From a bacterium (GTDB lineage: Bacteria; Hydrothermota; 32-111), in assembly GCA_050239825.1 (NCBI GenBank), contig JBFXGO010000039.1:1-19885 (forward strand): a DNA stretch of 19,885 nt. The letters run 5' to 3'. The notes under the pieces are model-generated. The model ran no database searches. It saw only the letters and a list, made by a program, of their open reading frames with translations, and was not told where the DNA came from. Shown piece by piece: positions 1 through 13,981 of this stretch (its first letter is position 1; the number at the start of each line of letters is the position of its first letter). A program made the position numbers and the translations under genes.

Positions 1-16
1 AACTCCCTTATGAATA

Positions 17-202
17 CTAATACCTTTTTACACAACTTCCTTGACAAGTCTCTGCTATCTCGTGATTATATACACCTTCCGATGACATCTTTATTATCCG
101 CGTTCTCAACACCAATCTCATCGGCACTCGCTTGCCACGTACATATCTCTCTATCTGCTCTCGCTCCGCTTCTGTTAAAACTATTCGCTCTGATATGTTC
201 AT
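17..202 (-). pseudogene. Truncated IS630-family transposase N-terminal HTH fragment
   Basis: IVLTEAEREQIERYVRGKRVPMRLVLRTRIIKMSSEGVYNHEIA matches the LTxxERxxL...RxxxRxRII...GxxNxEIA pattern of IS630 N-termini; it stops after 61 aa with no DDE domain. Confidence 0.7.
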
Positions 203-262
203 ACTTCATATTATATCATACCCTTTGTTAAATGTCGAGAGATTTATGCGACACCACAATAG
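17..262 (-). mobile_element. IS630-family insertion sequence remnant (left end plus truncated transposase N-terminus)
   Basis: Truncated HTH-like ORF at 17-202. The upstream sequence on minus begins CTATTGTGGTGTCGCATAAATCTCTCGACATTTAAC (262-227), resembling IS630-type termini ending at a TA. Confidence 0.6.
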
Positions 263-290
263 TATATTGCCTTTCATCATTCATTTTTCC

Positions 291-319
291 TTGAAAATAA
301 GGTCACAATATGATAAAAT
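291..319 (+). promoter_or_regulatory. sigma70-type promoter of the aminotransferase gene
   Basis: TTGAAA (291-296), 17 bp spacer, extended TG-n-TAAAAT (311-319); SD AAGGAG at 336-341 before ATG 348. Confidence 0.7.
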
Positions 320-347
320 TATTAAAATTTTACATAAGGAGTATTTA

Positions 348-1559
348 ATGATACATTACGATTCAGATTTTTCAAAAAATATAAAGGCAATGAAGCGCTC
401 CGTTATCAGGGAACTATTAAAAGTCACCCAATCACCGGAGATAATCTCATTTGCCGGCGGCCTTCCCTCCCCCGAGTCGTTTCCCATTGAAGCGATAAAG
501 GAAATAACTTCGGAAGTTCTTGATAAGAACGGCACAAAGGCATTGCAGTATGGTGCTACAGAGGGATTTCCTCCTCTTGTCGATGAACTCATTAAGCTTA
601 TGGCTCTTGACAATGTCAAAATCGGAAGAGAAAACATTGCAATCACTATAGCCTCTCAGCAGGGACTTGACCTTGTCGGAAAGATATTCTTCAATCCGGG
701 AGACATCGGAATAGTAGAGAGCCCGACCTATGTGGGTGCTTTGAGCGCATTCAACTCGTATAGGGCAAAACTTATAGATGTTGAAATAGACAATGACGGA
801 ATGAAGATGGATGTTTTGAAAAAGATACTTGCAGACCTGAAAAAGAAGGGAAAGAAGCCTAAATTCATCTATGTTATTCCTGATTTCCATAATCCCGCAG
901 GCGTAACCCTCTCTTTTGAAAGAAGAAAACAGCTTATAGAGATAGCCAAGAAAGAAAAGATAATGATTATTGAGGACAGTCCTTACAGAATGATCAGATT
1001 CCGCGGCAAGAGCATACCGTCTCTCTATTCAATGGATAAAGACGGACTCGTGGTATCTCTCTTCACTTTCAGCAAAATATTTGTACCCGGTTTCAGACTC
1101 GGCTGGGCAATTGGTCCGAAAGAGATAATTGACAAGATGATAATAGCAAAACAGGCGACCGACCTCAGCACTCCGGAGATAACACAGCACATTGCTGCGG
1201 CATTCCTTAAAAAGGGATTGCTTCTTCCCACTGTGAAGAAGACTGTATCCATTTATGAAAAGAAAAACAAACTAATGCTGGAGATGCTTGACAAATACAT
1301 GCCCAAGAAAAAGGGCGTGAGGTGGACAAAGCCGGATGGAGGTTTATTCCTTTGGGTTACTCTTCCTGAAAAGTATGACTGCGATAAGATATTCCTTAAG
1401 GCGATTGATAAAAAAGTTGCTTATGTGGTAGGTTCTGCGTTTTATGTTGGAGGCAAAAAGAAAAATTCATTCAGAATGAATTTTTCATACCCTTCAATGG
1501 ATCAGATACGAGAGGGCGTAAAGAGACTCGCCGAAGTCATAGACAATGAGATAAAATAG
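348..1559 (+). CDS. PLP-dependent class I/II aminotransferase (LysN/2-aminoadipate transaminase-like, 403 aa)
   Basis: Motifs IISFAGGLP, ALQYG, PDFHNPAG, IIEDSPY, FSKIFVPGFRLGW (PLP lysine) and PDGGLFLWV. Start moved from 132 to ATG 348 because of the SD and promoter. Confidence 0.92.
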   Translation: MIHYDSDFSKNIKAMKRSVIRELLKVTQSPEIISFAGGLPSPESFPIEAIKEITSEVLDKNGTKALQYGATEGFPPLVDELIKLMALDNVKIGRENIAITIASQQGLDLVGKIFFNPGDIGIVESPTYVGALSAFNSYRAKLIDVEIDNDGMKMDVLKKILADLKKKGKKPKFIYVIPDFHNPAGVTLSFERRKQLIEIAKKEKIMIIEDSPYRMIRFRGKSIPSLYSMDKDGLVVSLFTFSKIFVPGFRLGWAIGPKEIIDKMIIAKQATDLSTPEITQHIAAAFLKKGLLLPTVKKTVSIYEKKNKLMLEMLDKYMPKKKGVRWTKPDGGLFLWVTLPEKYDCDKIFLKAIDKKVAYVVGSAFYVGGKKKNSFRMNFSYPSMDQIREGVKRLAEVIDNEIK

Positions 1560-1576
1560 AATTTATATTTTATAGC

Positions 1577-1606
1577 AAAAAAAAGGGCGCAATCAGCGCC
1601 CTTTTT
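1577..1606. terminator. Bidirectional intrinsic terminator
   Basis: AAAAAAAAGGGCGC-AATCA-GCGCCCTTTTT: GC stem with T5 on + and T8 on -, located 17 bp after the aminotransferase stop. Confidence 0.88.
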
Positions 1607-1820
1607 ATTGTACATTCTCTCCTTTCTGTTTTATTCCTCTTATTTTAGGCTTTCTTGACATAAAAATCTATTCCCCCGTGGTTGACTTTTATTTTGCCAA
1701 TAACCAGTAGCCACTAAATAATCATCAATAATAAAAGATAATTCAGTTACGGGTTGCGAGTTTAAATACAATACGGAGTGCTGATTAATATTTATTCTTT
1801 TCAATAATCTTCTAAAACTT

Positions 1821-1906
1821 CTGGTACAACCCGTTTTTTCTATCATGTGCGTTAGCGCACATTTCACCCTCGCCAATGTGGGGACATTCCTTCGGTGTGT
1901 CCCCAC
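1821..1906. repeat. Module B copy 1 (two hairpins)
   Basis: ATGTGCG-TTAG-CGCACAT (1845-1862) and GTGGGGACA-TTCCTTCGGTG-TGTCCCCAC (1878-1906). Confidence 0.85.
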
Positions 1907-1949
1907 TGCAACAATCAATTAATTAACTTATTGAAAGTGAAAGCTCAAA

Positions 1950-2066
1950 GTCGGCGAGGACGCTCCGCGCAGACGCCCATCAAGTGGTTGTCCCCTTGCT
2001 CCGCTTTCCCATCTTGATTAAGCGGCGAAGCGAAGTGTGCGAGCCGACGCTACACCCGCGTGTAGC
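1950..2066. repeat. Module A copy 1 (117 bp long hairpin plus short hairpin)
   Basis: GTCGGC (1950-55) pairs with GCCGAC (2043-48); inner ATCAAG/CTTGAT stem; then GCTACAC-CCGC-GTGTAGC. Confidence 0.9.
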
Positions 2067-2076
2067 CCCCCAAATC

Positions 2077-2107
2077 AGCCGTGAGCCGTGAGCCATGTGC
2101 CATGAGC
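2077..2107. repeat. Heptamer tandem repeat H copy 1
   Basis: AGCCGTG AGCCGTG AGCCATG TGCCATG AGC. Confidence 0.85.
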
Positions 2108-2143
2108 ATAATACGGAGAGATGAATAAGATTTTGTCTTTACA

Positions 2144-2200
2144 GTTCCGAATGAGAAGCCTGTCCACAGCGCTCGTCTTTTCAATGCTTCTCATGAGGAC
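2144..2200. repeat. Module C copy 1 (hairpin)
   Basis: GTTCC-GA-ATGAGAAGC...GCTTCTCAT-GA-GGAC. Confidence 0.8.
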
Positions 2201-2238
2201 AATCAATTAAATAACTTATTGATACACGAAAGCTCAAA

Positions 2239-2333
2239 GTCGGCGAGGACGCTCCGCGCAGACGCCCGTCGAGGTCTGCCGAGACAAAGCCGCGAAGCGG
2301 AGTGTGTGAGCCGACGCTACACCCGCGTGTAGC
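2239..2333. repeat. Module A copy 2 (95 bp variant with different apical domain)
   Basis: Same basal stems and 3' hairpin; apex is GTC-GA-GG-TCTG-CC-GA-GAC. Confidence 0.88.
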
Positions 2334-2373
2334 CCCAGCTCAATCTTCAATAATCAATTAACGATAAACTGAT

Positions 2374-2418
2374 AGACCCTTCACGATAGTCATAACCACA
2401 GAGGCGTTCAGGGTGACA
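2374..2418. repeat. Module D copy 1 (CGTC/TGTC-tag REP-like palindrome)
   Basis: Minus strand reads TGTCACCCT-GA-ACG...CGT-GA-AGGGTCT. Confidence 0.75.
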
Positions 2419-2461
2419 CGGCTGAATAAGATTTTGTCTTTACAATAATCTTCACAAAGTT

Positions 2462-2547
2462 CTGGTGCAACCCGATGTCTCTATCATGTGCGTTCGCGCA
2501 CATTACACCCCAGCCAATGTGGGGACATTCCTACGGTGTGTCCCTAC
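2462..2547. repeat. Module B copy 2
   Basis: ATGTGCG-TTCG-CGCACAT (2486-2503) and GTGGGGACA...TGTCCCTAC (2519-2547). Confidence 0.85.
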
Positions 2548-2590
2548 TGCAACATTCAATTAAATAACTTATTGAAAGTGAAAGCTACAA

Positions 2591-2707
2591 GTCGGCGAGG
2601 ACGCTCCGCGCAGACGCCCATCAAGTGGTTGTCCCCTTGCTCCGCTTTCCCATCTTGATTAAGCGGCGAAGCGAAGTGTGCGAGCCGACGCTACACCCGC
2701 GTGTAGC
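2591..2707. repeat. Module A copy 3
   Basis: 117 bp; appears identical to copy 1. Confidence 0.9.
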
Positions 2708-2740
2708 CCATAAACAATCTTCAATTAACAACAAACTGAT

Positions 2741-2785
2741 AGACCCTTCATGATAGTCATAACCACAGAGGCGTTCAGGGTGACG
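2741..2785. repeat. Module D copy 2
   Basis: Minus strand reads CGTCACCCTGAACG...CATGAAGGGTCT. Confidence 0.75.
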
Positions 2786-2828
2786 CTGTTGAGTAAGATT
2801 TTGTCTTTACAATAATCTTCACAAAGTT

Positions 2829-2914
2829 CTGGTGCAACCCGATGTCTCTATCATGTGCGTTCGCGCACATTACATCCCAGCCAATGTGGGGACATTCCTA
2901 CGGTGTGTCCCTAC
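2829..2914. repeat. Module B copy 3
   Basis: Nearly identical to copy 2. Confidence 0.85.
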
Positions 2915-2957
2915 TGCAACATTCAATTAAATAACTTATTGAAAGTGAAAGCTACAA

Positions 2958-3074
2958 GTCGGCGAGGACGCTCCGCGCAGACGCCCATCAAGTGGTTGTC
3001 CCCTTGCTCCGCTTTCCCATCTTGATTAAGCGGCGAAGCGGAGTGTGCGAGCCGACGCTACACCCGCCAGCAGC
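2958..3074. repeat. Module A copy 4
   Basis: 117 bp; 3' hairpin is degenerate (GCTACACCCGCCAGCAGC). Confidence 0.9.
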
Positions 3075-3083
3075 CCATAAACC

Positions 3084-3114
3084 AGCCTTGAGCCGTGAGC
3101 CATGTGCCTTGAGC
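3084..3114. repeat. Heptamer tandem repeat H copy 2
   Basis: AGCCTTG AGCCGTG AGCCATG TGCCTTG AGC. Confidence 0.85.
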
Positions 3115-3151
3115 TTAATGCGGGGAGTTGAGTAAATAACTTGCCTTCACA

Positions 3152-3209
3152 GTTCCGAGGAAAAATTCCAGTGCATCTCCGCACTGCTATTCAATGTTTT
3201 TCCGAGGAC
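3152..3209. repeat. Module C copy 2 (hairpin, diverged from copy 1)
   Basis: GTTCC-GA-GGAAAAA...TTTTTCC-GA-GGAC with inner CAGTGC/GCACTG hairpin. Confidence 0.8.
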
Positions 3210-3245
3210 AAGCAAGTCAATTCTTATTGAAAGTGAAAGCTTCAA

Positions 3246-3362
3246 GTCGGCGAGGACGCTCCGCGCAGACGCCCATCAAGTGGTTGTCCCCTTGCTACGC
3301 TAACCCATCTTGATTAAGCGGCGAAGCGGAGTGTGCGAGCTGACGCTACGCCCGCGTGCAGC
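3246..3362. repeat. Module A copy 5
   Basis: 117 bp; GCCGAC changed to GCTGAC (G.U on +), plus a few loop changes. Confidence 0.9.
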
Positions 3363-3402
3363 CCATAAACAATCTTCAATAATCAATTAACGATAAACTG
3401 AT

Positions 3403-3425
3403 AGACCCTTCACGATAGTCATAAC
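3403..3425. repeat. Module D copy 3 (truncated half)
   Basis: AGACCCTTCACGATAGTCATAAC, after which similarity ends abruptly. Confidence 0.7.
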
Positions 3426-3456
3426 TAAAACTAGTGATAGCTTTTTGGGATAAAGA

Positions 3457-4320
3457 TTACATCTGCTCCCACATGCGCTTAAGAAGGCCTTTGTTGTCCT
3501 TCCATCCTTTCTCAACTTTAACAAATATTTCAAGGAAGACGCTCCTTCCGAGGAACTCTTCAATCATTTTTCTTGACCTCACACCCACCTCTTTTATTGC
3601 GGAACCCTTCTCTCCTATCAGTATTCCCTTTTGGCTGTCTCTCTCAACCAGAAGCTTGACCCTGATATAATCTTTGCGGTTCTCCTTCTCCGTGAATTCA
3701 TCGACTATTATACCGGTGGAGTAGGGTACCTCGTCTCCGTAGATCTCAAATACAGCCTGTCTGACAAACTCAGCCACAAAGAATCTCTCGGGTTTTTCAG
3801 TGATTATGTCCTCCGGATAGAAGAGATTATCATGCGGAAGGTAAAGCTTTATCTTTTGAATCAATCCGTCAAGATTTCTCTTTTCCAGAGCAGATATAAG
3901 AACAACATTCTCAAATCTCTCTTTTAACGAAATCTCTATTGAGGCGGCTTCTTCAGAGCTAATCCTGTCTGTTTTATTCAGAACTGCTATCGAGTGCTGA
4001 TTCTGAGATAGGTGAAATTCAAAAATCTCCTTATAATTTTTCATATCATAAAGAAAGAGAATTATATCCGAACTCTTTATTGATTCGTTTATGTCACGGA
4101 GCATCCATTCATCAAGCATGTTCCTCGTCTTTAAAAAGCCGGGGGTGTCATAAAATATAATCTGCGAATCGTCATCCATATATATGCCCTGAATAGAAGA
4201 GCGCGTAGTCTGCGCCTTCGGACTGACAGCAGAGAGCTTGAATTGAAGCAATGCATTGAGAAGAGTGGATTTTCCTGTATTTGGCCGGCCGATTATTGAT
4301 ACATAACCTGATTTCATCAT
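3457..4320 (-). CDS. era: GTPase Era
   Basis: G1 GRPNTGKS, G2 QTTR, G3 DTPG, G4 NKTD, G5 ISA; KH motif ILIGEKGSAIKEVG. Confidence 0.97.
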   Translation of the reverse strand: MMKSGYVSIIGRPNTGKSTLLNALLQFKLSAVSPKAQTTRSSIQGIYMDDDSQIIFYDTPGFLKTRNMLDEWMLRDINESIKSSDIILFLYDMKNYKEIFEFHLSQNQHSIAVLNKTDRISSEEAASIEISLKERFENVVLISALEKRNLDGLIQKIKLYLPHDNLFYPEDIITEKPERFFVAEFVRQAVFEIYGDEVPYSTGIIVDEFTEKENRKDYIRVKLLVERDSQKGILIGEKGSAIKEVGVRSRKMIEEFLGRSVFLEIFVKVEKGWKDNKGLLKRMWEQM

Positions 4321-5522
4321 GCACCGAACTTCTTAAGTCTGCCGGTGGATGCAAGCAGAAGAGACATCAGCTGTTTGGAGTAAATCCTTCCGATTGCGCC
4401 TCTAAGACACTCTCTTTCGGAGAATGATTTTACATCAGACAATCTCGGTCTGCTGTTAACAAGAAGCAGAGGCACGGTATGGTATGAGTGAGCCATCATG
4501 ACGGATGGAGTTGAATGGTCTGCCGTAATAGCCATTGCGTCGAATTTCATCTTTTCTATTTCAGGAAGCATGGCGTCAAATTCTTCAATCACTTTGACTT
4601 TTGCTTTGTAATTTCCATCCTCTCCGTATGAGTCTGTCTTCTTCACATGAAGAAAGAAAAAATCATATTTGTCATAGTTGGCTTTTAGAGTTTCAATCTG
4701 GTCTGCAATCGTTTCTTTTGTATGGAGAATGTCCATACCTACGAGAGTGGCAAGCCCCTTGTACATGGGATATGTAGCTATACAGCAGGGATTGAGCATG
4801 TATTTCTTTTTCATAGTAGGTATTTCAGGCATCTTTGAAATGCCTCTGAACAGAGCCGCATTTGCTTTCTTCTCTGCTTTCAGAGTATCCAGTATTTGGT
4901 CTGTCGCCTTGTTGATTATTTCCGCAGTTTCAGAGGAGGATTGATTCTGGGGCTCCGCTTTGAGTATCTGCTTTCCGGTCTCTTGAGGGTCTGTGTCATT
5001 TACATCCGCGGCACCATTAACCCCGCGGATAACCATCACAAATCTATGTTCCTTTCCGGCATAAAATTCAACCTGTCTGCCGTCAATGCTCTTTATTCTG
5101 TCATTCAATATTTTTACAAGCCTCTGATTTTCATCAGAAGATATTCTGCCCGCCCTCCTGTCTGTTATTATCCTCTCACTGTCTATCGTGGCAAAATTGC
5201 ATCTTACAGTAACAGTCTCTTTGTCAACCTTCAGATTAAGTCCGAGAGCTTCAAGAATTCCTCTTCCTATTATGTAATCTGTCGGTTCATAACCGAAGAC
5301 TCCAAGATGACCCGGACCGCTTCCAGGAGTTATTCCTATGTCAACAGGCACCATCTCTCCTGTCTCATAATGAGCGGCAAGTCTGTCCATATTTGGTTTT
5401 ACTGCGCTTTCAAGTTCTGTCTTGCCGCTTTCATCTGCAAGTCCGCCAAGCCCGTCGAGCACTACAAGAAGTATCTTGCTTTCATTTGGATTTTGAAGCT
5501 CATTAAAAATATCATCTTTCAT
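4317..5522 (-). CDS. apgM: 2,3-bisphosphoglycerate-independent phosphoglycerate mutase, archaeal type (401 aa)
   Basis: VLDGLGG, TPGSGPGHLGVFGY, GRGILEALG, DRRAGRI, HVKKTDSYGEDG, TADHSTP. Start set at ATG 5522 (SD GGAGGAG; ATGA overlap with the PHP stop). Confidence 0.93.
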   Translation of the reverse strand: MKDDIFNELQNPNESKILLVVLDGLGGLADESGKTELESAVKPNMDRLAAHYETGEMVPVDIGITPGSGPGHLGVFGYEPTDYIIGRGILEALGLNLKVDKETVTVRCNFATIDSERIITDRRAGRISSDENQRLVKILNDRIKSIDGRQVEFYAGKEHRFVMVIRGVNGAADVNDTDPQETGKQILKAEPQNQSSSETAEIINKATDQILDTLKAEKKANAALFRGISKMPEIPTMKKKYMLNPCCIATYPMYKGLATLVGMDILHTKETIADQIETLKANYDKYDFFFLHVKKTDSYGEDGNYKAKVKVIEEFDAMLPEIEKMKFDAMAITADHSTPSVMMAHSYHTVPLLLVNSRPRLSDVKSFSERECLRGAIGRIYSKQLMSLLLASTGRLKKFGA

Positions 5523-6331
5523 AGACTCCTCCACTTTTCAAGAAAAATTTCAAAAACATCATTGTGAAGACCTGTCGGAGTATATATGTTATCTCCGTGA
5601 TAGTCGCTACCGCCTGTTATCAGAAGCTTTCTCGGCTTTGCAAAGTCAAGGAGAAAATCTATCTGATTCACCCTGTTTTTCGGAGTATAGACCTCTAATC
5701 CGTCGATTCCCATGGAGTAAATCTCTTCAAGGTCTCTGTACGCCTCATTTTCAAAGGGATGCGCCATAACCGCCAATCCCCTCAGAGAGTGTATCATCTC
5801 CACAGTCTCTCTGATGGTAAATTCCATCTTCGGAACATAACAGCACTTGTTGTCTCCGATGTATCTGTCAAATGCCTCTTTTAAATCCGCAATCTGTTCA
5901 TTTTTGAGCATCGCTCTTGCTATATGAGGTCTTCCCACAGATTCGGACTCTTTAGCTTCGATAAGCACATCCTCAAAATCAATTTTTATGTTATTCTCGT
6001 TAAGAAGATCCACCATTTTTTTTGCCCTCTCTATTCTGTCCTTCTTTCTAATGTCAAGAAGTTCTCCGGCCTTCTTATAGTCCTTCATGTAGCCGAGTAT
6101 ATGTATTTGACGGCCGCTGTTGAATGTTGAATACTCTACTCCCGGGATATTTGTCATACCATTCATTTCAGCCCACTCCACTGCCTCTGCAACCGATCTG
6201 ACCGAGTCATGGTCTGTCAATGAAAAGAACTTGATGCCGTTCAGTTTCAGAAGTTCGCAGAGCACAAGAGGCGCATACCTTCCGTCAGAAGCGATGGTGT
6301 GCAGATGAAGGTCGGCAATCACCGTGTTCAT
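5519..6331 (-). CDS. PHP-domain phosphoesterase (TrpH/YciV-like)
   Basis: DLHLHTIASDG, TDHD, GVE, HILGY, GRPHIA, AHP, TGGSDYHG. Confidence 0.92.
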   Translation of the reverse strand: MNTVIADLHLHTIASDGRYAPLVLCELLKLNGIKFFSLTDHDSVRSVAEAVEWAEMNGMTNIPGVEYSTFNSGRQIHILGYMKDYKKAGELLDIRKKDRIERAKKMVDLLNENNIKIDFEDVLIEAKESESVGRPHIARAMLKNEQIADLKEAFDRYIGDNKCCYVPKMEFTIRETVEMIHSLRGLAVMAHPFENEAYRDLEEIYSMGIDGLEVYTPKNRVNQIDFLLDFAKPRKLLITGGSDYHGDNIYTPTGLHNDVFEIFLEKWRSL

Positions 6332-7146
6332 TGCATACCCATATCTGATACTATCTGATTGACAATTGAATCATCTATGAATGTTTTTTTCTCTATAAAA
6401 GCTTCAAGAAGAGCATTATCGCAAAGAGTATTTATAAGCCGGGGTTTGCCTTTTGCATGCACATGTATAAGTTTTAGGGATGATTCGGTAAAGAGCGGTT
6501 CTGATCTCCCTGCAATTTTGAGTCTATGAAGCACATAGCCCTTCGTTGATTCTTCGTCAAGCGCAGGAAGAGTCAGTTTCATGCTTATCCTCTCATAGAG
6601 AGGAGGGTCAAGACGAAGATTCTCCTCAGTCTCAGGCATGCCGAATATGAGAAATGTTATCAGGTGGCCATTGTCGTTCTGTATATTGAGAAGACCCCTC
6701 AGCTCCTCCATTATCTCCCGGCTTTTCAGCATATTCGCTTCATCAATCATCACTACCGGTTTCTTGCCCTTTTCATTAAGAAGCACAAGCTGTCTGTAAA
6801 CATGGCCTATTATATCTATTTTATCGTCCGTCTCAACCTTTGCGCCGAGTTGAACCGCTATCTTCTTCAATAGCCATCCGGCTGTAATTTCAGAGTGGAT
6901 TATTACAAGGAGAGAAACTTCATACTCATTCGGTTTTGAGGAAAAGTAATCAAGAAGTCTTCTCGCTATAGTCGTCTTTCCCGTTCCTATGTCACCAATC
7001 AGCACTGCAAGCCCTCTACCCTGGTCAACAACATGCATCAGTTTTAAAAGGGCTTTTGAATGAAAGGGGGAGTTGTAATAGAATCTTTCATCAGGCGAAC
7101 TGGAGAAGGGGGCGATTTTGAAACCAAAGTAAGTATTGTAATCCAT
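6328..7146 (-). CDS. ExeA/GspA-like AAA+ ATPase (stand-alone ATPase domain)
   Basis: Y..YFGF...PFS.SPD.RFYY N-terminus, Walker A GDIGTGKTT, Walker B VMIDEAN, GMPE, GKPRLINTLCDNALL. Confidence 0.9.
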   Translation of the reverse strand: MDYNTYFGFKIAPFSSSPDERFYYNSPFHSKALLKLMHVVDQGRGLAVLIGDIGTGKTTIARRLLDYFSSKPNEYEVSLLVIIHSEITAGWLLKKIAVQLGAKVETDDKIDIIGHVYRQLVLLNEKGKKPVVMIDEANMLKSREIMEELRGLLNIQNDNGHLITFLIFGMPETEENLRLDPPLYERISMKLTLPALDEESTKGYVLHRLKIAGRSEPLFTESSLKLIHVHAKGKPRLINTLCDNALLEAFIEKKTFIDDSIVNQIVSDMGMQ

Positions 7147-7148
7147 AG

Positions 7149-9392
7149 TTACATATAACTCACCTTATTATTTTTTTTGGCAAGATTCTCCTTTTCCTCA
7201 TCAGTTAATTCCACAGTGAAATTGTCAAGGTCAATGTCGTCAATGCTGAAATCTGATGATATTTCATCTTTCAGTATGGAAGAAAAATCAATGAAATCAC
7301 TCTGTTTTTCAGGTGTTTTTTGCTGAGGTTGCTGAATCTGCGGTCTCTTCTCTATCTCTTTTGGCGCAGATTTTATAGCATTCATCCTCTTTTCCACATC
7401 TTCAAATTTTGAATCCACAGTATATATTTCATTATAAATTTTCAATGCTTCCTTGGTCATCTTCTTGGCTTCATAGAGCTTGCCCAATGTATATTTGATT
7501 CCGATAAATGCCGTTTCATTGCCTCCTGTCTTATTTGAGAGTGCTTTTTGAAGAGATGATTCCGCAAGGTCATACTCTTGTTTTTCAAGAAAGCATATTC
7601 CCAACATCTCGAGGGATTTTATTTCATAATCTTTGTGCTTCACAGATTTCTGGAACTCTTCAATAGCCATGTCATACAGACCCATCTCCTTGAAAGAGAC
7701 CCCCAAATCATAATGGCTTGAAACATCCGACTCCTCGATGTTTTGGTCAAGACCCTCTTTTAGTTCGTCCAGCAGTTCCTGAAGAGACCATACACTTGAA
7801 TCCTGCTGTTGAGGTTTGTTGTCCTCTATCTTGAATTTCGGTTTGTTGCCTTCATTCTTTCCCTGAATAATATCTTTGGCTGTAACGTGCTCCGATTCTT
7901 TCAGAAAATCCAGATCTGACATTTCACCGAGTATATCTTTAACAAAATCATCAAGCGGGTTCTCCTGCGGAGTTGCCTGCGCGGGTTGGCTGAAAAATCT
8001 GTCGGCATTCTGCTGTGTCGGCTGCTGTAAAGTCGGCTGAACAGGTGGAGGAGTCTGTTTTATGGGTTCCATTTTCGGTTGCGGCTGTTGATACTGCTGT
8101 TGAGGTTGAGCATTTGTCTGCTGAGGCTGAACCTGCTGTCTTGGAGGTTCCGTAAAAGGCGATTGAGGCTTCAATTTGGCATCAAGCGCAGCTTTCAGTT
8201 GAACTGCAGGTTGAAATGTGGGGTCAATGCTCAATGCATTGTTGATGTAACTTAACGCATCCGTCGGTGATTTTCCCATCGCCTCTTTTGCTAGGTGAAC
8301 ATAGGGCAACAGAGCCTCTCTGTACATCTGTGCTTTGCTTGCAATTTCAATTATCCTCTTTACCGCCTTGTCTTCATCTGATTTTATTTCAAATATTCTC
8401 TTGTAAACATTCAATGCATTTATCAGGTCATTCGCTTCATAATATCCGTCAGCGCCCTGATAGTATGACTGTACGGCTCCTCCGATGTCGATGTCTTCCT
8501 GCAGTTTTCCAAGCTCAACAAATGAGCCATAACTCGACGCATCCTCTTTAAAGAGGCCGTCCAATTCGCTTTCCGGTGAATTTGACTGCTGATTGCTTTC
8601 CTGCGCAGGAGCTGAAATCTCCTCTTTTTCCTGAGTATTGGCAAATGTCTCGTCAAGCTGTTTTGAAAGACCTGCCGTAAGGTCATCTATATCAATATCC
8701 AATGACTCTTCAGCGATTGGATGCGGAGGTTCCACCTTCACATTCTCCACAGGTACTGCTCTCTTCTCCTCTTTTGGAGGTTTGCCCATTTTGCTTTCCA
8801 GCTGAGATATCTTCACTCTCGTTGCTGTTGCATTCGGCAGATCCCCGCGTTTCATATGATAAGATTCTATGTCTCTAAGATATTCGAGGGCGAATTCAAA
8901 ATTCCCTTCCTGCATGTAAAGTTCGACAAGTTTGTCTTTTATTTCGACTTTATCAGGCATCAGTTCCAAGGTCTTTTTGAATGCTTCAATTGCCAATGCT
9001 TTATTATTTGACTGCAAAGACTTTTCCGCAAGAAGGATGTAGCTGTTCAACGCCTCTCCGAGGGAGCCCATCTTTTTGTAAAGGTCGGCAACTGTTTCAT
9101 ACATTTCCAAAAGCGAAGGATCAACCTTTATTATCTTCTTCGCCATCACGATTGCATTGGAATGCCACGACTGATTCACATAGATAGTAAGGGCGGCTCT
9201 GTAATTTTCCACAGCTTCAGCATTCTTTTTGAGATTATTGAGGTATATATCGCCTATTGTGTTATAGAATGAAGGATCGGGATTGTTCTTCAATGCGGCC
9301 AAAATCTGCATATAGATTTTTATGGCCTTTTCATATTGACCCTCATTTTGCGCTTTTCGCGCTTTTTCTTTAGCTTCTCCTAAACTGGCCAT
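7149..9392 (-). CDS. Large cytoplasmic TPR protein, SgmX-like architecture
   Basis: N-terminal and central TPR clusters, acidic and Q/P-rich linkers, C-terminal TPR block SHYDLGVSFKEMGLYDMAIEEF...YTLGKLYE...FEDVEKR. No signal peptide; SD GGAG. Confidence 0.8.
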   Translation of the reverse strand: MASLGEAKEKARKAQNEGQYEKAIKIYMQILAALKNNPDPSFYNTIGDIYLNNLKKNAEAVENYRAALTIYVNQSWHSNAIVMAKKIIKVDPSLLEMYETVADLYKKMGSLGEALNSYILLAEKSLQSNNKALAIEAFKKTLELMPDKVEIKDKLVELYMQEGNFEFALEYLRDIESYHMKRGDLPNATATRVKISQLESKMGKPPKEEKRAVPVENVKVEPPHPIAEESLDIDIDDLTAGLSKQLDETFANTQEKEEISAPAQESNQQSNSPESELDGLFKEDASSYGSFVELGKLQEDIDIGGAVQSYYQGADGYYEANDLINALNVYKRIFEIKSDEDKAVKRIIEIASKAQMYREALLPYVHLAKEAMGKSPTDALSYINNALSIDPTFQPAVQLKAALDAKLKPQSPFTEPPRQQVQPQQTNAQPQQQYQQPQPKMEPIKQTPPPVQPTLQQPTQQNADRFFSQPAQATPQENPLDDFVKDILGEMSDLDFLKESEHVTAKDIIQGKNEGNKPKFKIEDNKPQQQDSSVWSLQELLDELKEGLDQNIEESDVSSHYDLGVSFKEMGLYDMAIEEFQKSVKHKDYEIKSLEMLGICFLEKQEYDLAESSLQKALSNKTGGNETAFIGIKYTLGKLYEAKKMTKEALKIYNEIYTVDSKFEDVEKRMNAIKSAPKEIEKRPQIQQPQQKTPEKQSDFIDFSSILKDEISSDFSIDDIDLDNFTVELTDEEKENLAKKNNKVSYM

Positions 9393-9423
9393 CGCACTCC
9401 TTTTTAACTGATAGAACTATAAA

Positions 9424-10269
9424 TTATAACTCTCGCCTGAATGATGTCAACTGCCTTTTTAATCCAAGCGAATCTGAAACCTCGTCGACCATTTGGCCGT
9501 CTATCGGTATTCTCTGCAGAAAAGCGGCTTCAAGAAGAGCATTGTCGCAGATAGTGTTTATCAGCCTCGGTCTCCCGTTTGCATAATTGTGTATCATATC
9601 AACCGCCTCCTGAGTGAATATGGAGAGCGTGCCTCCTGCCACTGAGAGCCGGTATTTGATGTATCCGTATGTTTCATCTTTTGAGAGAGATTTGAGGTAT
9701 GCCCTTGCGGCTACTCTCTGAAGAAGAGACTCATTCTGCATAATGTTCTTCTCCAACTCGGGAACTCCTATGAGTATAAATGTTATTATTCTTCTGTCGG
9801 AAAGTTCAAGATTCAAAAAGCCCCTTATCTGCTCTATTACTTTTGCATCTGATATTTTATTCGCCTCATCTATCATTATGACCACCTTCTTGCCCTCCTT
9901 GTCAAGCCGTATAAGCTGGCGCGTTATTATGTTCATTGGGTCAGTCATAAGATTTGTAGTGTCCTTTATTCCCACAAGCTGGGCAAGCCTTGTGTAGAGC
10001 CATTCGTCGGTGAAGTTCTCATGGGTAAGAACTATAAGCCCTGTCTGAAACTTGGGATTCTTCGATAGGTATGACAAGAGCTTCCTAGCGACTGTTGTCT
10101 TTCCCGTTCCTACCTCTCCGACGAGCATTGCAAAGCCGCGCATCTTGTCTGCCGCATGCATAAGCCTTAACAGAGCCATCTTGTGCTGTTGGCTTTCAAA
10201 AAAGAACCTGGTATCAGGTATGTTGGCAAAAGGCTCGAAGGACATTTTGAAGAATTCTTCGTAATTCAT
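9424..10269 (-). CDS. ExeA/GspA-like AAA+ ATPase (second paralog)
   Basis: PFANIPDTRFFF, Walker A GEVGTGKTT, Walker B IMIDEAN, GVPEL, GRPRLINTICDNALL. Confidence 0.9.
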   Translation of the reverse strand: MNYEEFFKMSFEPFANIPDTRFFFESQQHKMALLRLMHAADKMRGFAMLVGEVGTGKTTVARKLLSYLSKNPKFQTGLIVLTHENFTDEWLYTRLAQLVGIKDTTNLMTDPMNIITRQLIRLDKEGKKVVIMIDEANKISDAKVIEQIRGFLNLELSDRRIITFILIGVPELEKNIMQNESLLQRVAARAYLKSLSKDETYGYIKYRLSVAGGTLSIFTQEAVDMIHNYANGRPRLINTICDNALLEAAFLQRIPIDGQMVDEVSDSLGLKRQLTSFRREL

Positions 10270-10282
10270 AATTCCTCACTCA

Positions 10283-11098
10283 TTAAAAGTGAATGTTTGA
10301 GTCGTCTTTTAAACTCTCTTCAGACAATTTATCTATTTTATACCTATTTTTATCATTTGTCAATTTACTTATTTTTTCTTTTATGTCCAGAAAGTCAAAA
10401 TCTATCCTTTCAATCTCCCTGTAAATTTCAAGAGCCCTTCCTGCATCCTCCTCCTCAGTCATCACAGCAAGCTTGTACATCAGAGGAAGAGAATCCGTGT
10501 CATTTGAATTGTTTATCTCCGAAGAGAGTATGGTTTTTGCTTTCTGTTTCATGCCCCTCTTTTCAAGAGTCTGACAGTAAGAGAGAACCATTTTTGATTT
10601 TGCCTTGCCATCGGAATTTGAAATAGCCGATTTAAAGTAAGAGTCGGAAATGTTCTCAATTCCGGCATCCCTGAGCTTCATCGAAAGTTCAAAATACTTC
10701 GCTCCCAATGCGGATTTATCTCTCTTTGAGGAATCGGAAAGAAACTGCCTTGCTTTATCTTCTTCGCTGTTTTCAAAATAAAAGACAAGGGTTTCCGCAA
10801 ACTCTGTTTGAAGAGGATACTTCAGAGACATCTCTCGGATTCTTTTGCCCTCGCGCATCAGGGGTTCAATTATCTTTTCAGCCTCATCATTCACATTCAT
10901 CATCAGAAAATGGTTGAACAGGTGGTAAAAAACCACGAACTGGTCTTCAAAGAGAGGAGCCAATTTCAGCAAGATTATCACTGCTTCAGCCCCATGTTTA
11001 TACTTTACCTCCTGAAAAATATCTATAAGAAGATTTATTCTTTCTTCAACATTCTCTGTCTTTTCTGCTTCAACGAGCTTCGTTTTGAAGTTATCCAA
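10283..11098 (-). CDS. Helical/TPR-repeat protein
   Basis: TTG start with GAGAGAGGG upstream, overlapping the hutI stop. C-terminal YKLAV...ALEIYREIERIDFDFLDIKEKI parallels the end of the large TPR protein. Confidence 0.75.
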   Translation of the reverse strand: MDNFKTKLVEAEKTENVEERINLLIDIFQEVKYKHGAEAVIILLKLAPLFEDQFVVFYHLFNHFLMMNVNDEAEKIIEPLMREGKRIREMSLKYPLQTEFAETLVFYFENSEEDKARQFLSDSSKRDKSALGAKYFELSMKLRDAGIENISDSYFKSAISNSDGKAKSKMVLSYCQTLEKRGMKQKAKTILSSEINNSNDTDSLPLMYKLAVMTEEEDAGRALEIYREIERIDFDFLDIKEKISKLTNDKNRYKIDKLSEESLKDDSNIHF

Positions 11099-12320
11099 TT
11101 ACCCTCTCTCCTTTGCAGAAAACCATATTCGGTTTATCTTCCCCGAAAAAATAAAAGAGCTGTGAGTAGTTGTTTCTTCTGAAAACAACTATATCCGCAT
11201 CTTTTCCCTCTCTGATGCTTCCGGTTCTATCCGAAAGTCCGAGAGAGTATGATGGATTCAGTGTTATTGCCGGCATAAGCTCTTTCGGAAGAAGATTGTA
11301 ATTTATCATGCCTATTCCCGCGGCAAGAAGAATAGACATAACAGGCGATGAACCGGGATTAAAATCCGTCGAAATTGCTATCGTATTTTTAATTTTTCTC
11401 ATCGCCTCAATCGGAGGTCTGGTCTTTATTCTCAAAAGAAAGTTGGTTGCAGGAAGCAGAGTTATGACGGTTTTGTTGTTTTTCAATGCTTCAAGGTCAT
11501 TCCTATCAGGTATGTTGAAATGGTCAACCGATTTTGTCTTCATTTCTGCGGCGGCAGTTGAACCTCCTGAAAAATCAATTTCATCCGCATGCACCCTGCC
11601 TTCAAGCCCATGTCTTTTACCCGCCTCGAGTATCCTTACAGTTTCATCTTGGGTATATACCCCCTTCTCGCAGAAGACATCAACATAGTCAGCGAGTTTT
11701 TCATCCGCTATAAAGGGAATCATCTCCTCTATCATGAATTTAATGTAGTCATCTCTTCTCTCTCTGTATTCATTGGGAATCTCGTGCGCTCCGAGGTATG
11801 TCGCTTTTATATTTATTTTAAATTCATCTTTAAGATTTCGTATAACCCTGAGCTGTTTAAGTTCAGTCTCCCTGTCAAGTCCGTACCCGCTCTTTATTTC
11901 AATTGAGGTGACACCCTTTGATATGAAAATCTTTAGCCTCTCCTTGGCTTCATCGAAGAGATCTTCCTCTGTTGCCTCACGGGTCATTTTTACGCTTCTC
12001 TTTATCCCGCCGCCAGCAGAGGCAATATCCTTGTATGTCATGCCCTTTACGCGCATTTCAAACTCATCCTCTCTTGTGCCGTGAAAAACAAGATGTGTGT
12101 GCGAATCAGTAAAACCCGGCACTGCGATGCATCCCGAACAATCAATAACTTCGTCATATTTCTCTTCTTCAGCGTTTTTACCCACAAAAATTATCTTCCC
12201 ATCCTCAATTCCGATGCAATCTCCTTCGGAGAGTATATCAGCATCTTCTCCCAGAACTATGAAGCTGTCTGCTGAATGGCATGAAACAATTTCGTTGAGA
12301 TTCTTCAACAGTTTTTTCAT
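11091..12320 (-). CDS. hutI: Imidazolonepropionase
   Basis: [49 protein letters not shown]; adjacent to hutU. Confidence 0.96.
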
Positions 12321-13972
12321 TTTATCATCGGCATATTTATATTCTTCTTTTTGGCAGTATCAATAGCTATGCTGTAGCCTGCGTCAGCATGCCTTACAAC
12401 GCCAATTCCCGGATCATTTGTCAGAACCCTCTCAATTTTTTCTGCCTGCCTGTGTGTGCCGTCGGCGAGTGTAACCTGTCCGGCATGAATCGAATATCCG
12501 ATGCCCACTCCGCCCCCGTGGTGCACGGAGACCCATGTGGCTCCGCTTGCTATGTTGAGCATGGCATTCAAAACAGGCCAATCGGCTATTGCGTCGGACC
12601 CGTCCATCATCGCCTCTGTTTCCCTGTTCGGCGACGCCGCCCCTCCGGTATCATGATGGTCTCTTCCTATTGCTATCGGTCCGGATATTCTTCCTCTCTT
12701 GACCATCTCATTCATCTTCAATCCGAACAGAGCCCTCTCACCCTGAGAGAGCCAGCAGATTCTCGCAGGAAGTCCCTGGAACCTTACTTTTTTATTCGCC
12801 ATCTCTATCCAGATTCTTAAATGCTCATTATCGGGAAATGTTTCGAGAAGCGCTTTATCTGTCTCATAAATGTCATTTTCATTTCCTGTTAGCGCTACCC
12901 ACCTGAACGGTCCGGAGCCCTCTGAAAAGAGGTCCCTAATGTAAGCAGGCATATAACCCACTATGTCAAAAGCATCCTTTACTCCATTATCGAAAGCCCT
13001 CTGCCTGAGGTTGTTGCCGTATTCAAATACATTCACACCCGCTCTCTTCATTTCGAGCATTGCGGTTATATGCTTTGAAATCGAATCATACACTCTTTTC
13101 ATGTAGGTTTCTTTATCTTTATTCCTGAGTTCATCTGCCTCGGCAATTGAGCATCCGGCAGGTATGTACCCGAAGAGAGGGTCATGTGCCGCAGTCTGGT
13201 CAGTCAGCACATCCGGGTATATCTTTCTTCTGACCATCTCCGGAAGTATCTCCGATGCATTTCCGAATAATCCTATTGAGAGCGGTTTACCCTCTTTTAT
13301 CGCCTCGTCCTTGAGCATCAGCGCCTCATCTAGCGACTTTGCTTTGACATCGCAGTACTTCTGTTCTATTTTCCTGTCTATGTGAGTTTCATCAGCTTCA
13401 ATTGCAATTATAACTCCGTCGTTCATCACTGCGGCGAGAGGTTGTGCTCCGCCCATCTCTCCAAGCCCTGCAGTCACAGCCCATTTTCCCTTGAGGGTTC
13501 CTCCGTAAAGTTTTTTTGCTATCGCGTAGAAGACCTCATAGGTGCCCTGCAGTATTCCCTGAGTTCCTATGTATATCCATGAACCTGCAGTCATCTGTCC
13601 GTAGCATGTGAGACCCATCTCTTCAAGCCGCAAAAACTCTTCAAATGTAGCCCACTTCGGCACGAGAAGGGTGTTTGTAATCAAAACCCTCGGAGCCCAC
13701 TCGTTTGTCTTGAATACTGCCACCGGCTTACCTGACTGCATTATCAGAGTCTCATCATCATTCAAGCTTTTCAATGTCTCTATGATTTTATAGTATGACT
13801 CCCAATTTCTCGCCGCCTTTCCCCTGCCGCCGTAAACAACCAGATTCTCAGGGTCCTTTGCAACATCAGGGTCAAGATTGTTCATCAGCATCCTCATGGG
13901 CGCCTCTGTCTGCCACGATTTGCAGGAGAGATTATTTCCTCTCGGCGCATGAATGGGAGAATATTTATGCAT
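12317..13972 (-). CDS. hutU: Urocanate hydratase
   Basis: [74 protein letters not shown]. Confidence 0.98.
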
Positions 13973-13981
13973 ATGAAACTC

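Follow-up and report, generated by a model that had tools for sequence, protein, structure and literature searches.

The window, the whole 19,885-nucleotide stretch of DNA analysed here, holds between an aminotransferase gene and era an array of structured elements that raises the question of what kind of entity builds it. An earlier note had left two answers standing, an undescribed composite mobile-repeat family or a multi-unit structured RNA array. Most probably the array is not an RNA gene but belongs with the mosaic repeats known from bacteria, as a new relative confined to one lineage.

Structure of the array in the window

The five copies of module A described in the earlier note were found again at their positions, with spacings of 289, 352, 367 and 288, and the order B-A-X-A*-Y-A-Y-A-X-A-Y(truncated) was recovered as written. 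Four of these copies are 113 nt long and differ pairwise at 1-7 positions, and the fifth (A*) is a 91-nt short form. The two copies of hairpin C have, as had been claimed, diverged in sequence while remaining alike in fold, both keeping an outer stem and a tandem G.A loop, and the folding of one 368-nt unit beats 100 of 100 shuffles (z from -3.3 to -3.5). The left edge of the array lies further left than first described, taking in a lead-in and a fragment of an IS end (Table 1). This fragment is 93% identical over 107 bp to a segment of the same genome (G000:C3:10650-10756) that runs into a transposase remnant with a PF02371 fragment; its terminal 26-27 bp were found again at 5 further places, and it is missing in both congeners (G001 and G002), where the terminator-like hairpin that forms the left boundary is also found at the empty site. 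In unit 1 the inner palindrome stands in place of the 3' arm of hairpin Ha, and the first 293 bp of unit 4 are 98% identical to unit 3, a local duplication. A Pfam scan of the 15 open reading frames in the window assigned ordinary families to 10 and no family to 5, with no nuclease, transposase, reverse transcriptase or recombinase family among them, in agreement with the earlier statement that the window encodes no cognate enzyme.

Table 1. Features of the array and its left boundary, in window coordinates.
Feature	Positions	Strand	Description
Terminator-like hairpin (host, bidirectional)	1576..1610	.	After aminotransferase gene; left boundary, outside the insertion
Truncated IS-like element end	1610..1706	-	~27-bp terminal repeat, ribosome-binding site, start codon
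Lead-in	1707..1781	+	A-tail remnant and second heptamer type (GTTACGA-like); module with 13 genome matches
Unit 1	1782..2121	+	S 1782-1803, Ha 1804-1877, inner palindrome 1878-1906, T 1912-1934, A 1939-2051
Unit 1 tail	2052-2121	+	Heptamer tail
Unit 2	2122..2422	+	S 2122-2143, Hb 2144-2199 (first C), T 2200-2222, short A* 2228-2318
Unit 2 tail			With palindrome D 2371-2418
Unit 3	2423..2789	+	S 2423-2444, Ha 2445-2518, inner palindrome 2519-2547, T 2553-2575, A 2580-2692
Unit 3 tail			With palindrome D 2738-2784
Unit 4	2790..3128	+	S, Ha, inner palindrome 2886-2914, T, A 2947-3059, heptamer tail
Unit 5	3129..3455	+	S 3129-3151, Hc 3152-3209 (second C), T 3210-3230, A 3235-3347
Unit 5 tail			Truncated D ending ~3425, then remnant of third tail type up to era stop codon
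Palindrome D	2371..2418	-	Copy of upstream end of small Ssn-type GIY-YIG gene; GTCA-tagged on minus strand
Inner palindrome	1878..1906 (also 2519-2547, 2886-2914)	-	Self-complementary, independently inserting element
Heptamer run	2077..2107 (also 3084-3114)	+	Type flanking the genome's four-helix-bundle gene

No public record spanning the window array was found that would confirm the exact unit order independently. An artefact of short-read metagenome assembly, in the array or in its shuffling, would fit this situation, as it would the many arrays that stop at contig edges and the fact that the sole run holding the array may be the source sample. Such an artefact is nevertheless very unlikely: depth in run X1 is 20-23 at unique flanks and 188-4405 in array bins, exact pieces in that run cross from the flanks into both array ends, the S-H-T-A unit is present in two other genomes, and the unlinked sites 4-10 bp apart described below would fit within any assembly k-mer.

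Genome-wide organization of the family

The window array is not a single special locus, but one of 46 arrays of at least 250 bp, located between genes, within a family of 61 loci (41.6 kb) in the genome of this uncultured WOR-3 bacterium. The repeated unit has the form S - H(a/b/c) - T - A - tail, spans ~290-420 bp and is arranged head-to-tail, with irregular hairpins of 57-140 nt and a total of 105 A copies in the genome. H is always flanked by S and T, two imperfect ~22-bp palindromes, with a spacing conserved in three genomes, and the hairpins B and C of the earlier note occupy one and the same slot, H. The fixed grammar of two connectors, X and Y, proposed in that note describes the local look of the window; as a genome-wide rule it fails, since the tail type of a unit is independent of its hairpin type (p=0.67), a tail shows at best weak coupling to the hairpin that follows it (p=0.064) and there is also a third type of tail, so that X and Y are not fixed connectors. 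Modules in this genome run head-to-tail, with one reversed D in the parse, and a single back-to-back unit pair was seen, in G002 (L040). Arrays begin and end in mid-module, and the segments between repeats are themselves repeated genome-wide. Array orientation tracks GC skew in 39 of 46 arrays and on 27 of 32 contigs, and does so in 14 of the 17 arrays lying between convergent or divergent genes. An ORF present in duplicate next to two arrays was assigned to no Pfam family, and no additional copies of it were found.

The constant bracketing of H by S and T at conserved spacing, together with the independence of H type from tail type, could be read as S and T being substrates of the genome's tyrosine recombinases. 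This reading is very unlikely, given that shuffling inside A and Ha is as fine as across S and T, that attC-like box pairs number 0 in the window array and 4 in the 46 arrays, and that the two full-length tyrosine recombinases, by inspection of the XerC/D kind, are separated from the nearest array by 3.9 and 19.7 kb.

Distribution and turnover at orthologous sites

The window insertion site is empty in both congeners, and other orthologous sites carry different modules or none, so that arrays appear, vanish and change content. A 5-bp word flanks the whole window insertion on both sides; no clean duplication was seen at other sites, and there are no paired ends. In covariance-model searches, which scored the top candidates per genome, the unit core turned up in 3 of 151 genomes and in 3 of 37. 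All of these belong to this genus, to which the S-H-T-A core is restricted among the genomes searched. A scan of a genome collection returned 34 stretches, 13 of them examined, comprising 18 in WOR-3-titled records, 3 in an unclassified record, 8 under other taxon labels and 5 chance matches. The 8 stretches under other labels, two of which carry 68-77% matches to genes of the window's genome, are real copies, probably on misbinned contigs, although transfer may also account for them. A gapped-pattern scan of metagenome and viral contigs gave chance GC-rich matches, with 0 of the 143 loci listed matching the array by BLAST, and its metagenome part was uninformative. Within a literature search that took in few subscription papers and no supplements, nothing relevant was found on WOR-3 intergenic palindromic repeats, nor was anything relevant found on four-helix-bundle heptamers.

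Gene content between arrays bears on a different proposal, in which the host maintains the arrays as a platform for recombination, capturing and exchanging accessory genes as integrase-free cassettes in the way proposed for NIMEs. An AbiEi/AbiEii pair is enclosed by arrays on contig C28, a 187-aa membrane gene with no congener match at E<=1e-25 lies between arrays on C27, modules on a contig of another record are separated by AbiE, AAA_14-DUF4143 and nucleotidyltransferase genes, and some sites are reused by different modules in congeners. Against these cases, there is no gene within the window array, the majority of the 46 arrays adjoin housekeeping genes (as judged by eye) and the AbiE pair is also present in G002 at another locus, which leaves the platform decidedly unlikely.

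Pairing constraint and fine-scale shuffling

Pairing in H and A is under constraint, while sites 4-10 bp apart are near linkage equilibrium. In module A, 91.9% of 603 cells are paired and 19 of 33 pairs have changed on both sides, with 0 of 500 shuffles equally high; compensatory changes affect 10 of 13 pairs in H. The arms of Ha, ~65 nt apart, match in 35 of 36 copies in the window's genome (r2 0.87), and neither arm shows linkage to the two sites beside the 3' arm (r2 0.03-0.06). Canonical A copies are almost all distinct (84 of 88). Polymorphic sites of A 4-10 bp apart show a mean r2 of 0.020, versus 0.011 expected if independent, and four gametes are present in 112 of 120 A site pairs. Neighbouring A copies differ by 6.2 of 113 nt and random ones by 7.9; since neighbours are almost as different as random copies, simple rolling-circle copying of one unit misfits most arrays. 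MutS is present in the genome, and hence the base-scale shuffling is not due to its absence.

The pairing also has a polarity. Non-canonical pairs of A read on the plus strand are G.T (40) and G.A (32) versus A.C (6) and T.C (3), and the plus strand is lower in energy in 18 of 19 cases as RNA and in 15 of 19 as DNA. A folds on the C-rich strand, which is not the strand exposed at the fork, and the tags of D, of the inner palindrome and of the TIRYT ends lie on the G-rich strand; H lacks such polarity. Because A folds on the C-rich strand, some probability has to be kept for a structured-RNA array, in which the S-H-T-A core would be a plus-strand transcribed non-coding RNA or RNA-based mobile unit on which DNA passengers pile up. 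The covariation with G.U and invariant tandem G.A pairs is readable on the plus strand only, S and T contain conserved unpaired motifs whose spacing is fixed, unpaired positions hold 13 of the 16 common polymorphisms, and the inner palindrome has on its plus strand loops that we take to be of the UNCG-type class. The same loops, however, can be read on the minus strand as what are presumably stable DNA triloops. An Rfam scan gave no match inside the window array at E<=5, with weak matches to the terminator outside it, and 0 matches in 7 further loci at E<=1; no RNA run containing the array is listed among public runs. Promoter-like sites (4 vs 3.0) and terminator-like sites (2 vs 2.0) are at chance level, orientation tracks skew also between genes of opposite direction, array ends fall inside modules, reverse transcriptase was found in 1 of 3 genomes of the genus and a hammerhead core is not conserved. 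On balance, an RNA nature of the core is unlikely.

Passenger modules and candidate nucleases

The passenger modules derive from Ssn GIY-YIG ends, TIRYT (Y1-HUH) ends and four-helix-bundle heptamers. Palindrome D has 37 matches in the genome, and 41 of the 105 units have a D-type tail. Over 48 bp it shares 87.5% identity with G000:C27:46368-46416, at the upstream end of a gene (C27:46082-46390, ~100 aa) classed as Ssn-type by PF01541, size and flanks. Lying 667 bp from an array, this is the sole inspected enzyme gene within 1 kb of one. The published SRM pattern occurs nowhere in the window array, and its 4 matches genome-wide do not include D. The inner palindrome fits the TIRYT repeat consensus GGGGWSAS (PMC3733652); all 47 canonical copies lie in one orientation, with 9 different 3' junctions, and no TIRYT gene ending in it was found among the 31 Y1 loci (of 34) with flanks inspected. 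The heptamers occur on both sides of a four-helix-bundle gene (G000:C49:7420-7779, TIGR02436).

Four Y1 genes of 260-300 aa are each flanked by terminal inverted repeats; in all four the ends are unlike the arrays, scores are under the NF047646 cut-off and none is beside an array. Of 34 TIRYT ends, 13 lie at arrays, all in one orientation, and the arrays bear a single TIR, not a pair. In six genomes, inspection of Y1, GIY-YIG and four-helix-bundle genes showed none flanked by S, H, T or A, and a search covering Y1, GIY-YIG, four-helix bundle, tyrosine recombinase, reverse transcriptase, TnpB and IS110 found no core at the ends in the flanks inspected. TIRYT and Ssn genes are also present in relatives without arrays, and the restriction to the genus is therefore not explained by them.

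Proposed origin and maintenance of the arrays

The earlier proposal of an undescribed composite mobile-repeat family mixing several palindrome classes gains support from the genome-wide occurrence, from the turnover at orthologous sites and from the Ssn-type GIY-YIG and TIRYT end pieces. The account we favour, and consider probable, is that of a genus-specific, non-coding, non-autonomous, BIME/NIME-like selfish mosaic handled as single-stranded DNA. Under this account, the arrays would be exposed to such handling at replication forks, where resident single-strand nucleases (TIRYT, Ssn) may act in trans, cutting at their tags on the lagging-strand template; such cuts could seed, extend and interrupt arrays. 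Very frequent short-patch exchange among copies would shuffle alleles, occasional local duplication would add units, and a putative protein reading the folded S-H-T-A core might preserve the stems and the tandem G.A loop. Precedents, in the portions of the sources compared, are the model of BIME diversification and amplification (PMC3333891), the dynamic NIME arrays (PMC1797815) and the Ssn-SRM pairs (PMC11893778).

A bolder alternative, possible though unlikely, is that a single-strand machine of an undescribed kind, DNA- or RNA-based, acts on the core. It would recognise a tandem G.A loop of one strand, favour one replication strand when inserting units and carry out recombination between copies at close to single-base resolution. 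The arrays would then serve as landing pads that need no integrase, collecting ends from three unrelated classes of nuclease-associated elements and moving toxin-antitoxin cargo. The spread and diversification of REP-like mosaics remain an open question, and ~100 copies in one genome, with diverged forms in two congeners, make a measurable system that unites three properties: base pairing that persists across unlinked sites, a loss of linkage within 4-10 bp and a bias in replication strand. Candidate substrates for the Ssn-type nuclease and the TIRYT proteins are D, the inner palindrome and the TIR ends; in the portions of the literature covered, no test of the activity of such proteins on repeats of this kind was found. 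Should the core have its own enzyme or an RNA function, it would count as a mobile or diversifying element of a new kind; failing that, its interest as a repeat of a single lineage is modest.

Comparison with known repeat systems

As portrayed in the parts of the sources compared, BIMEs and REPs with TnpA-REP/RAYT (PMC3333891, PMC3733652, PMC6006769) are likewise extragenic, multi-copy, tandem and built of chimeric hairpin and linker units, with copy number and content varying by locus and Y1-HUH genes in the genome. BIMEs are inverted doublets of 20-40-nt REPs, whereas the arrays here have the much longer units and irregular hairpins given above, no REPtron for the core and a strong strand bias, and neighbouring copies are well conserved in E. 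coli tandem BIMEs but not here. The link to GTAG-tagged palindromes and RAYTs given in the earlier note does not hold: just 1 of the 47 inner palindromes carries the tag GTAG, and other ends are found at all four Y1 genes.

Neisserial intergenic mosaic elements (dRS3/NTS + RS) with SsnA, on the same partial basis (PMC1797815, PMC11893778), also form long, dynamic intergenic arrays, share a hairpin with the ends of a small single-domain GIY-YIG gene and receive opportunistic insertions of other elements. The NIME hairpin delimits every unit, whereas D is an optional tail that fails the SRM pattern; NIME spacers belong to >100 RS families, whereas the arrays here have one ordered, covarying core. 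TIRYT/TIRtron genes (TnpA-Y1 subclass 2.1), as far as PMC3733652 and PMC6006769 were compared, are Y1 genes flanked by terminal inverted repeats, as here; the inner palindrome resembles their repeats in consensus and self-complementarity, and single TIR ends cap 13 array positions, but it is the end of no TIRYT gene found here, and the arrays carry one TIR instead of a pair. A matching family could be present in the TIR figures and additional files of these two papers.

Three other candidates were rejected. A CRISPR lacks support in that there are no unique spacers, every intervening segment being repeated genome-wide. For hammerhead retrozyme arrays, with the hammerhead core sequence used as search pattern, the core heptamer was found 21 times in the 46 arrays and their flanks, mostly as one variable tail allele and with the partner strand absent, and a plus-strand look-alike has no conserved 3-8 pair. 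For integron attC arrays, the attC box pattern gave 0 box pairs in the window array, and the recombinases look like XerC/XerD and fragments.

Streptococcal BOX, ERIC/IRU and Correia MITEs may be likened to the arrays described here as non-autonomous, modular or long-hairpin intergenic repeats. A probable difference is that for the unit here no terminal inverted repeats or clear target duplication were seen, and that it forms head-to-tail arrays of whole units.

Genome-wide organization of the array family

The array contains five copies of the long hairpin A, whose spacings, together with the heptamers and the module order, all matched the description in the earlier note when the sequence was re-read. 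No nuclease, transposase, reverse transcriptase or recombinase was identified among the 15 window proteins scanned. In public sequencing run X1, read depth was 20-23 in the unique flanks and 188-4405 in the array bins, confirming that the repeat is present in many copies. No single public record spanning the whole array was found, and X1 is possibly the sample from which the assembly came; the order of the units given by the assembly is hence provisional. BLAST identified 61 loci of the family in the host genome G000 (2.1 Mb, marker-based completeness 99%; the window is its contig C64), totaling 41.6 kb and 105 copies of A, with 46 loci of at least 250 bp.

Cutting the arrays at shared anchors revealed a unit composed of S (22 bp), a hairpin slot H, T (~22 bp), A and a tail. 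The hairpin modules B and C of the earlier note are alternative occupants of slot H. Across the 105 units, this slot holds Ha (60), Hc (25), Hb (17) or an unclassified sequence (3), and the tail is of the D type, which carries palindrome D (41), of the heptamer type (39), of a third type (14) or unclassified (11). Hairpin and tail types are independent inside a unit (p=0.67), and coupling between a tail and the H of the following unit is weak at most (p=0.064). Every Ha in the window has lost its 3' arm, and an inner palindrome of 26-28 bp stands in its place. The palindrome is an element in its own right, as indicated by its single orientation in 47/47 canonical copies and by the 9 different junctions at which these are found, within H, A and tRNA-derived repeats. 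No published description of the family was found in the literature searched; the three-slot grammar with its statistics, the provenance of three modules, and the replication-strand bias, strand conflict and linkage result reported for the family are contributed by this analysis.

Locations of the array neighbors and related features (C, contigs of G000; L, other loci; G002, a congener)
Feature	Location	Strand	Remark
Class I aminotransferase	window, ends 1559	+	left neighbor of array
Era-type GTPase (era)	window, ends 3457	-	right neighbor of array
Truncated end of IS-like element	window 1610-1706		extra piece beside array
Sequences resembling IS-end fragments	window 1-52; 138-262		upstream of aminotransferase; up to 13 and 3 other matches in genome
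MITE-like element, ~190 bp	C3:9805-9992; C5:16112-16300; C55:750-940; C24:33500-33615; C1:17197-17300		terminal 27 bp common with IS-end fragment at window 1680-1706
747-aa TPR protein between two AAA_22 ATPases	window 6328-11098		ATPases presumably ExeA-like
Histidine-utilization cluster	window 11091-15502		adjoins AAA_22/TPR block
Gene-free TIRYT-end pairs	C14:36254-36466; C28:13895-14107; C41:22135-22346; C47:6391-6604		
Gene-free TIRYT-end pairs, further	C22:10780-10904; C19:6835-6984, 9971-10120; C9:37879-38181		
Tandem repeats, seemingly tRNA-derived	C27:42860-43173, 45270-45503; C7:21119-21548, 73210-73604; C27:46400-46810		
Back-to-back S-H-T-A units	G002, L040:1623-1842		opposite orientation, ~17 bp between
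Duplicated ORF	C44:1-504; C47:1-504		contig-truncated

Structural constraint and linkage among copies

The fold of a complete unit surpassed 100/100 shuffles on both strands. For 19 A variants selected from the three genomes, pairing held in 91.9% of 603 cells, a figure favored by our having drawn the structure from the same sequences, and both sides had changed in 19/33 pairs; 0/500 shuffles scored as high and slid controls reached 25-39%. The tandem G.A loop of A is near-invariant (19/19 and 18/19), 13/16 common polymorphisms in A fall at unpaired positions, and 10/13 pairs in H are compensatory. Within G000, the Ha arms are matched in 35/36 copies (r2 0.87), even though the two variable sites adjoining the 3' arm show no linkage with either arm (r2 0.03-0.06); this makes the Ha arm test stronger support for structure than the cross-genome pairing counts. 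Sites in the 5' half of Ha partly retain linkage (r2 0.15-0.55). These patterns show that the hairpin structure is under constraint.

Among canonical A copies, 84/88 sequences are distinct. Mean r2 in A falls from 0.32 at 1-3 bp to 0.020 at 4-10 bp and ~0.02 further away (0.011 expected under independence), with all four gametes in 112/120 site pairs. We read this loss of linkage as frequent short-patch exchange; the alternative reading of the same data is recurrent toggling at the same sites. MutS is encoded in G000. Copies of A differ on average by 6.2 nt within an array versus 7.9 nt between arrays, and are identical in only 4/91 within-array pairs. Local duplication thus does occur, as in units 3 and 4 of the window array, but most arrays are assembled from a mixed pool of copies.

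Orientation with respect to replication

The array minus strand coincides with the G-rich strand in 39/46 arrays (p=2e-6), and the same orientation relative to GC skew is found in 30/35 strong-skew arrays and 27/32 contigs. The bias is kept at 14/17 arrays whose neighboring genes are convergent or divergent (p=0.013), and this result points to replication as its cause rather than to transcription. PMC3971601 describes both the use of GC skew to stand for fork direction and a bias of this kind for single-strand IS200 elements.

Provenance of the passenger modules

Over 48 bp, palindrome D shares 87.5% identity with the upstream end of a small GIY-YIG gene; on its downstream side this gene carries a matching end in inverted orientation, and it is syntenic in congener G002. 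Genes of the Ssn single-strand nucleases have this layout (PMC11893778), although D does not match the published repeat pattern. Four Y1 genes in G000, each with terminal inverted repeats, resemble TIRYTs (PMC6006769). TIRYT-type ends occur at arrays in 13/34 cases, all in one orientation. The sequence of the inner palindrome agrees with the consensus given for TIRYT repeats (PMC3733652, section 16), but no match to it was found among the Y1 gene ends inspected. The array heptamers also border a four-helix-bundle gene, a link for which no literature was found. For D, the inner palindrome and the TIRYT ends alike, the tags lie on the G-rich strand, which is the lagging-strand template.

TIRYT ends also occur as gene-free pairs spaced 120-300 bp apart, which are MITE-like derivatives of TIRYT elements. 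On contigs C5 and C56, a TIRYT gene immediately follows a tRNA gene, and the presence of these two TIRYT genes at the same sites in congeners (L223, L219, L228) suggests stable, domesticated elements. Tandem repeats beside tRNA-Ser, tRNA-Gln and probably tRNA-Arg genes, some containing the inner palindrome, seem to derive from tRNA 3' halves.

Proposed mechanism and strand conflict

The explanation we favor, and consider moderately probable as a whole, is that the family is a selfish, non-autonomous mosaic processed in single-stranded form, as DNA, at replication forks. Resident Ssn and TIRYT nucleases would act in trans on the passenger tags, a separate and so far hypothetical reader would act on the S-H-T-A core, and short-patch exchange with occasional duplication would produce the arrays. 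The two-step scheme of diversification and amplification proposed for BIMEs (PMC3333891) provides a model, and the dynamic NIME arrays (PMC1797815) a second precedent. The family works like a BIME or NIME but does not pass the tests that define either, and is therefore filed as neither. No gene flanked by the core was found among the enzyme-gene flanks inspected, and Ssn, TIRYT-type and other named enzymes also occur in array-free relatives.

A folds on the C-rich strand, opposite to the tags (G.T 40 and G.A 32 versus A.C 6 and T.C 3), and H has no clear strand polarity. Two explanations are considered: reading of the core on a different single-stranded form, such as an antisense RNA, an excised strand or the lagging strand as it is synthesized, or a bias that results from the loss of arrays with the stronger fold on the lagging template. 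The strand on which A folds also keeps alive the reading of the core as a structured RNA, for which an Rfam scan, promoter scans, a hammerhead check and the distribution of reverse transcriptases gave no support.

Distribution and turnover

A BLAST search of 60 relatives located the unit in both congeners and, elsewhere, one weak 29-bp match; covariance models built for A and for S-H-T matched 3/151 and 3/37 genomes, respectively, all of this genus. Records titled WOR-3 contain copies of the repeat. In both congeners the aminotransferase-era gap spans ~57 bp and holds only a terminator, and other orthologous sites are empty or carry another pile of modules. Array edges often abut a stop codon at one side and a -35 box at the other. 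Back-to-back opposed units were seen in G002, with none in the G000 parse. In a record labeled Vulcanibacillus, AbiE, AAA_14-DUF4143 and nucleotidyltransferase genes on a 30-kb contig (L335, L336, L363, L364), either misbinned or transferred, are surrounded by modules almost identical to those described here, and the AbiEii-AAA block of this contig occurs twice. In G000, an ORF of 124 aa assigned to no Pfam family is duplicated, its copies (97% identity) lying upstream of two different arrays.
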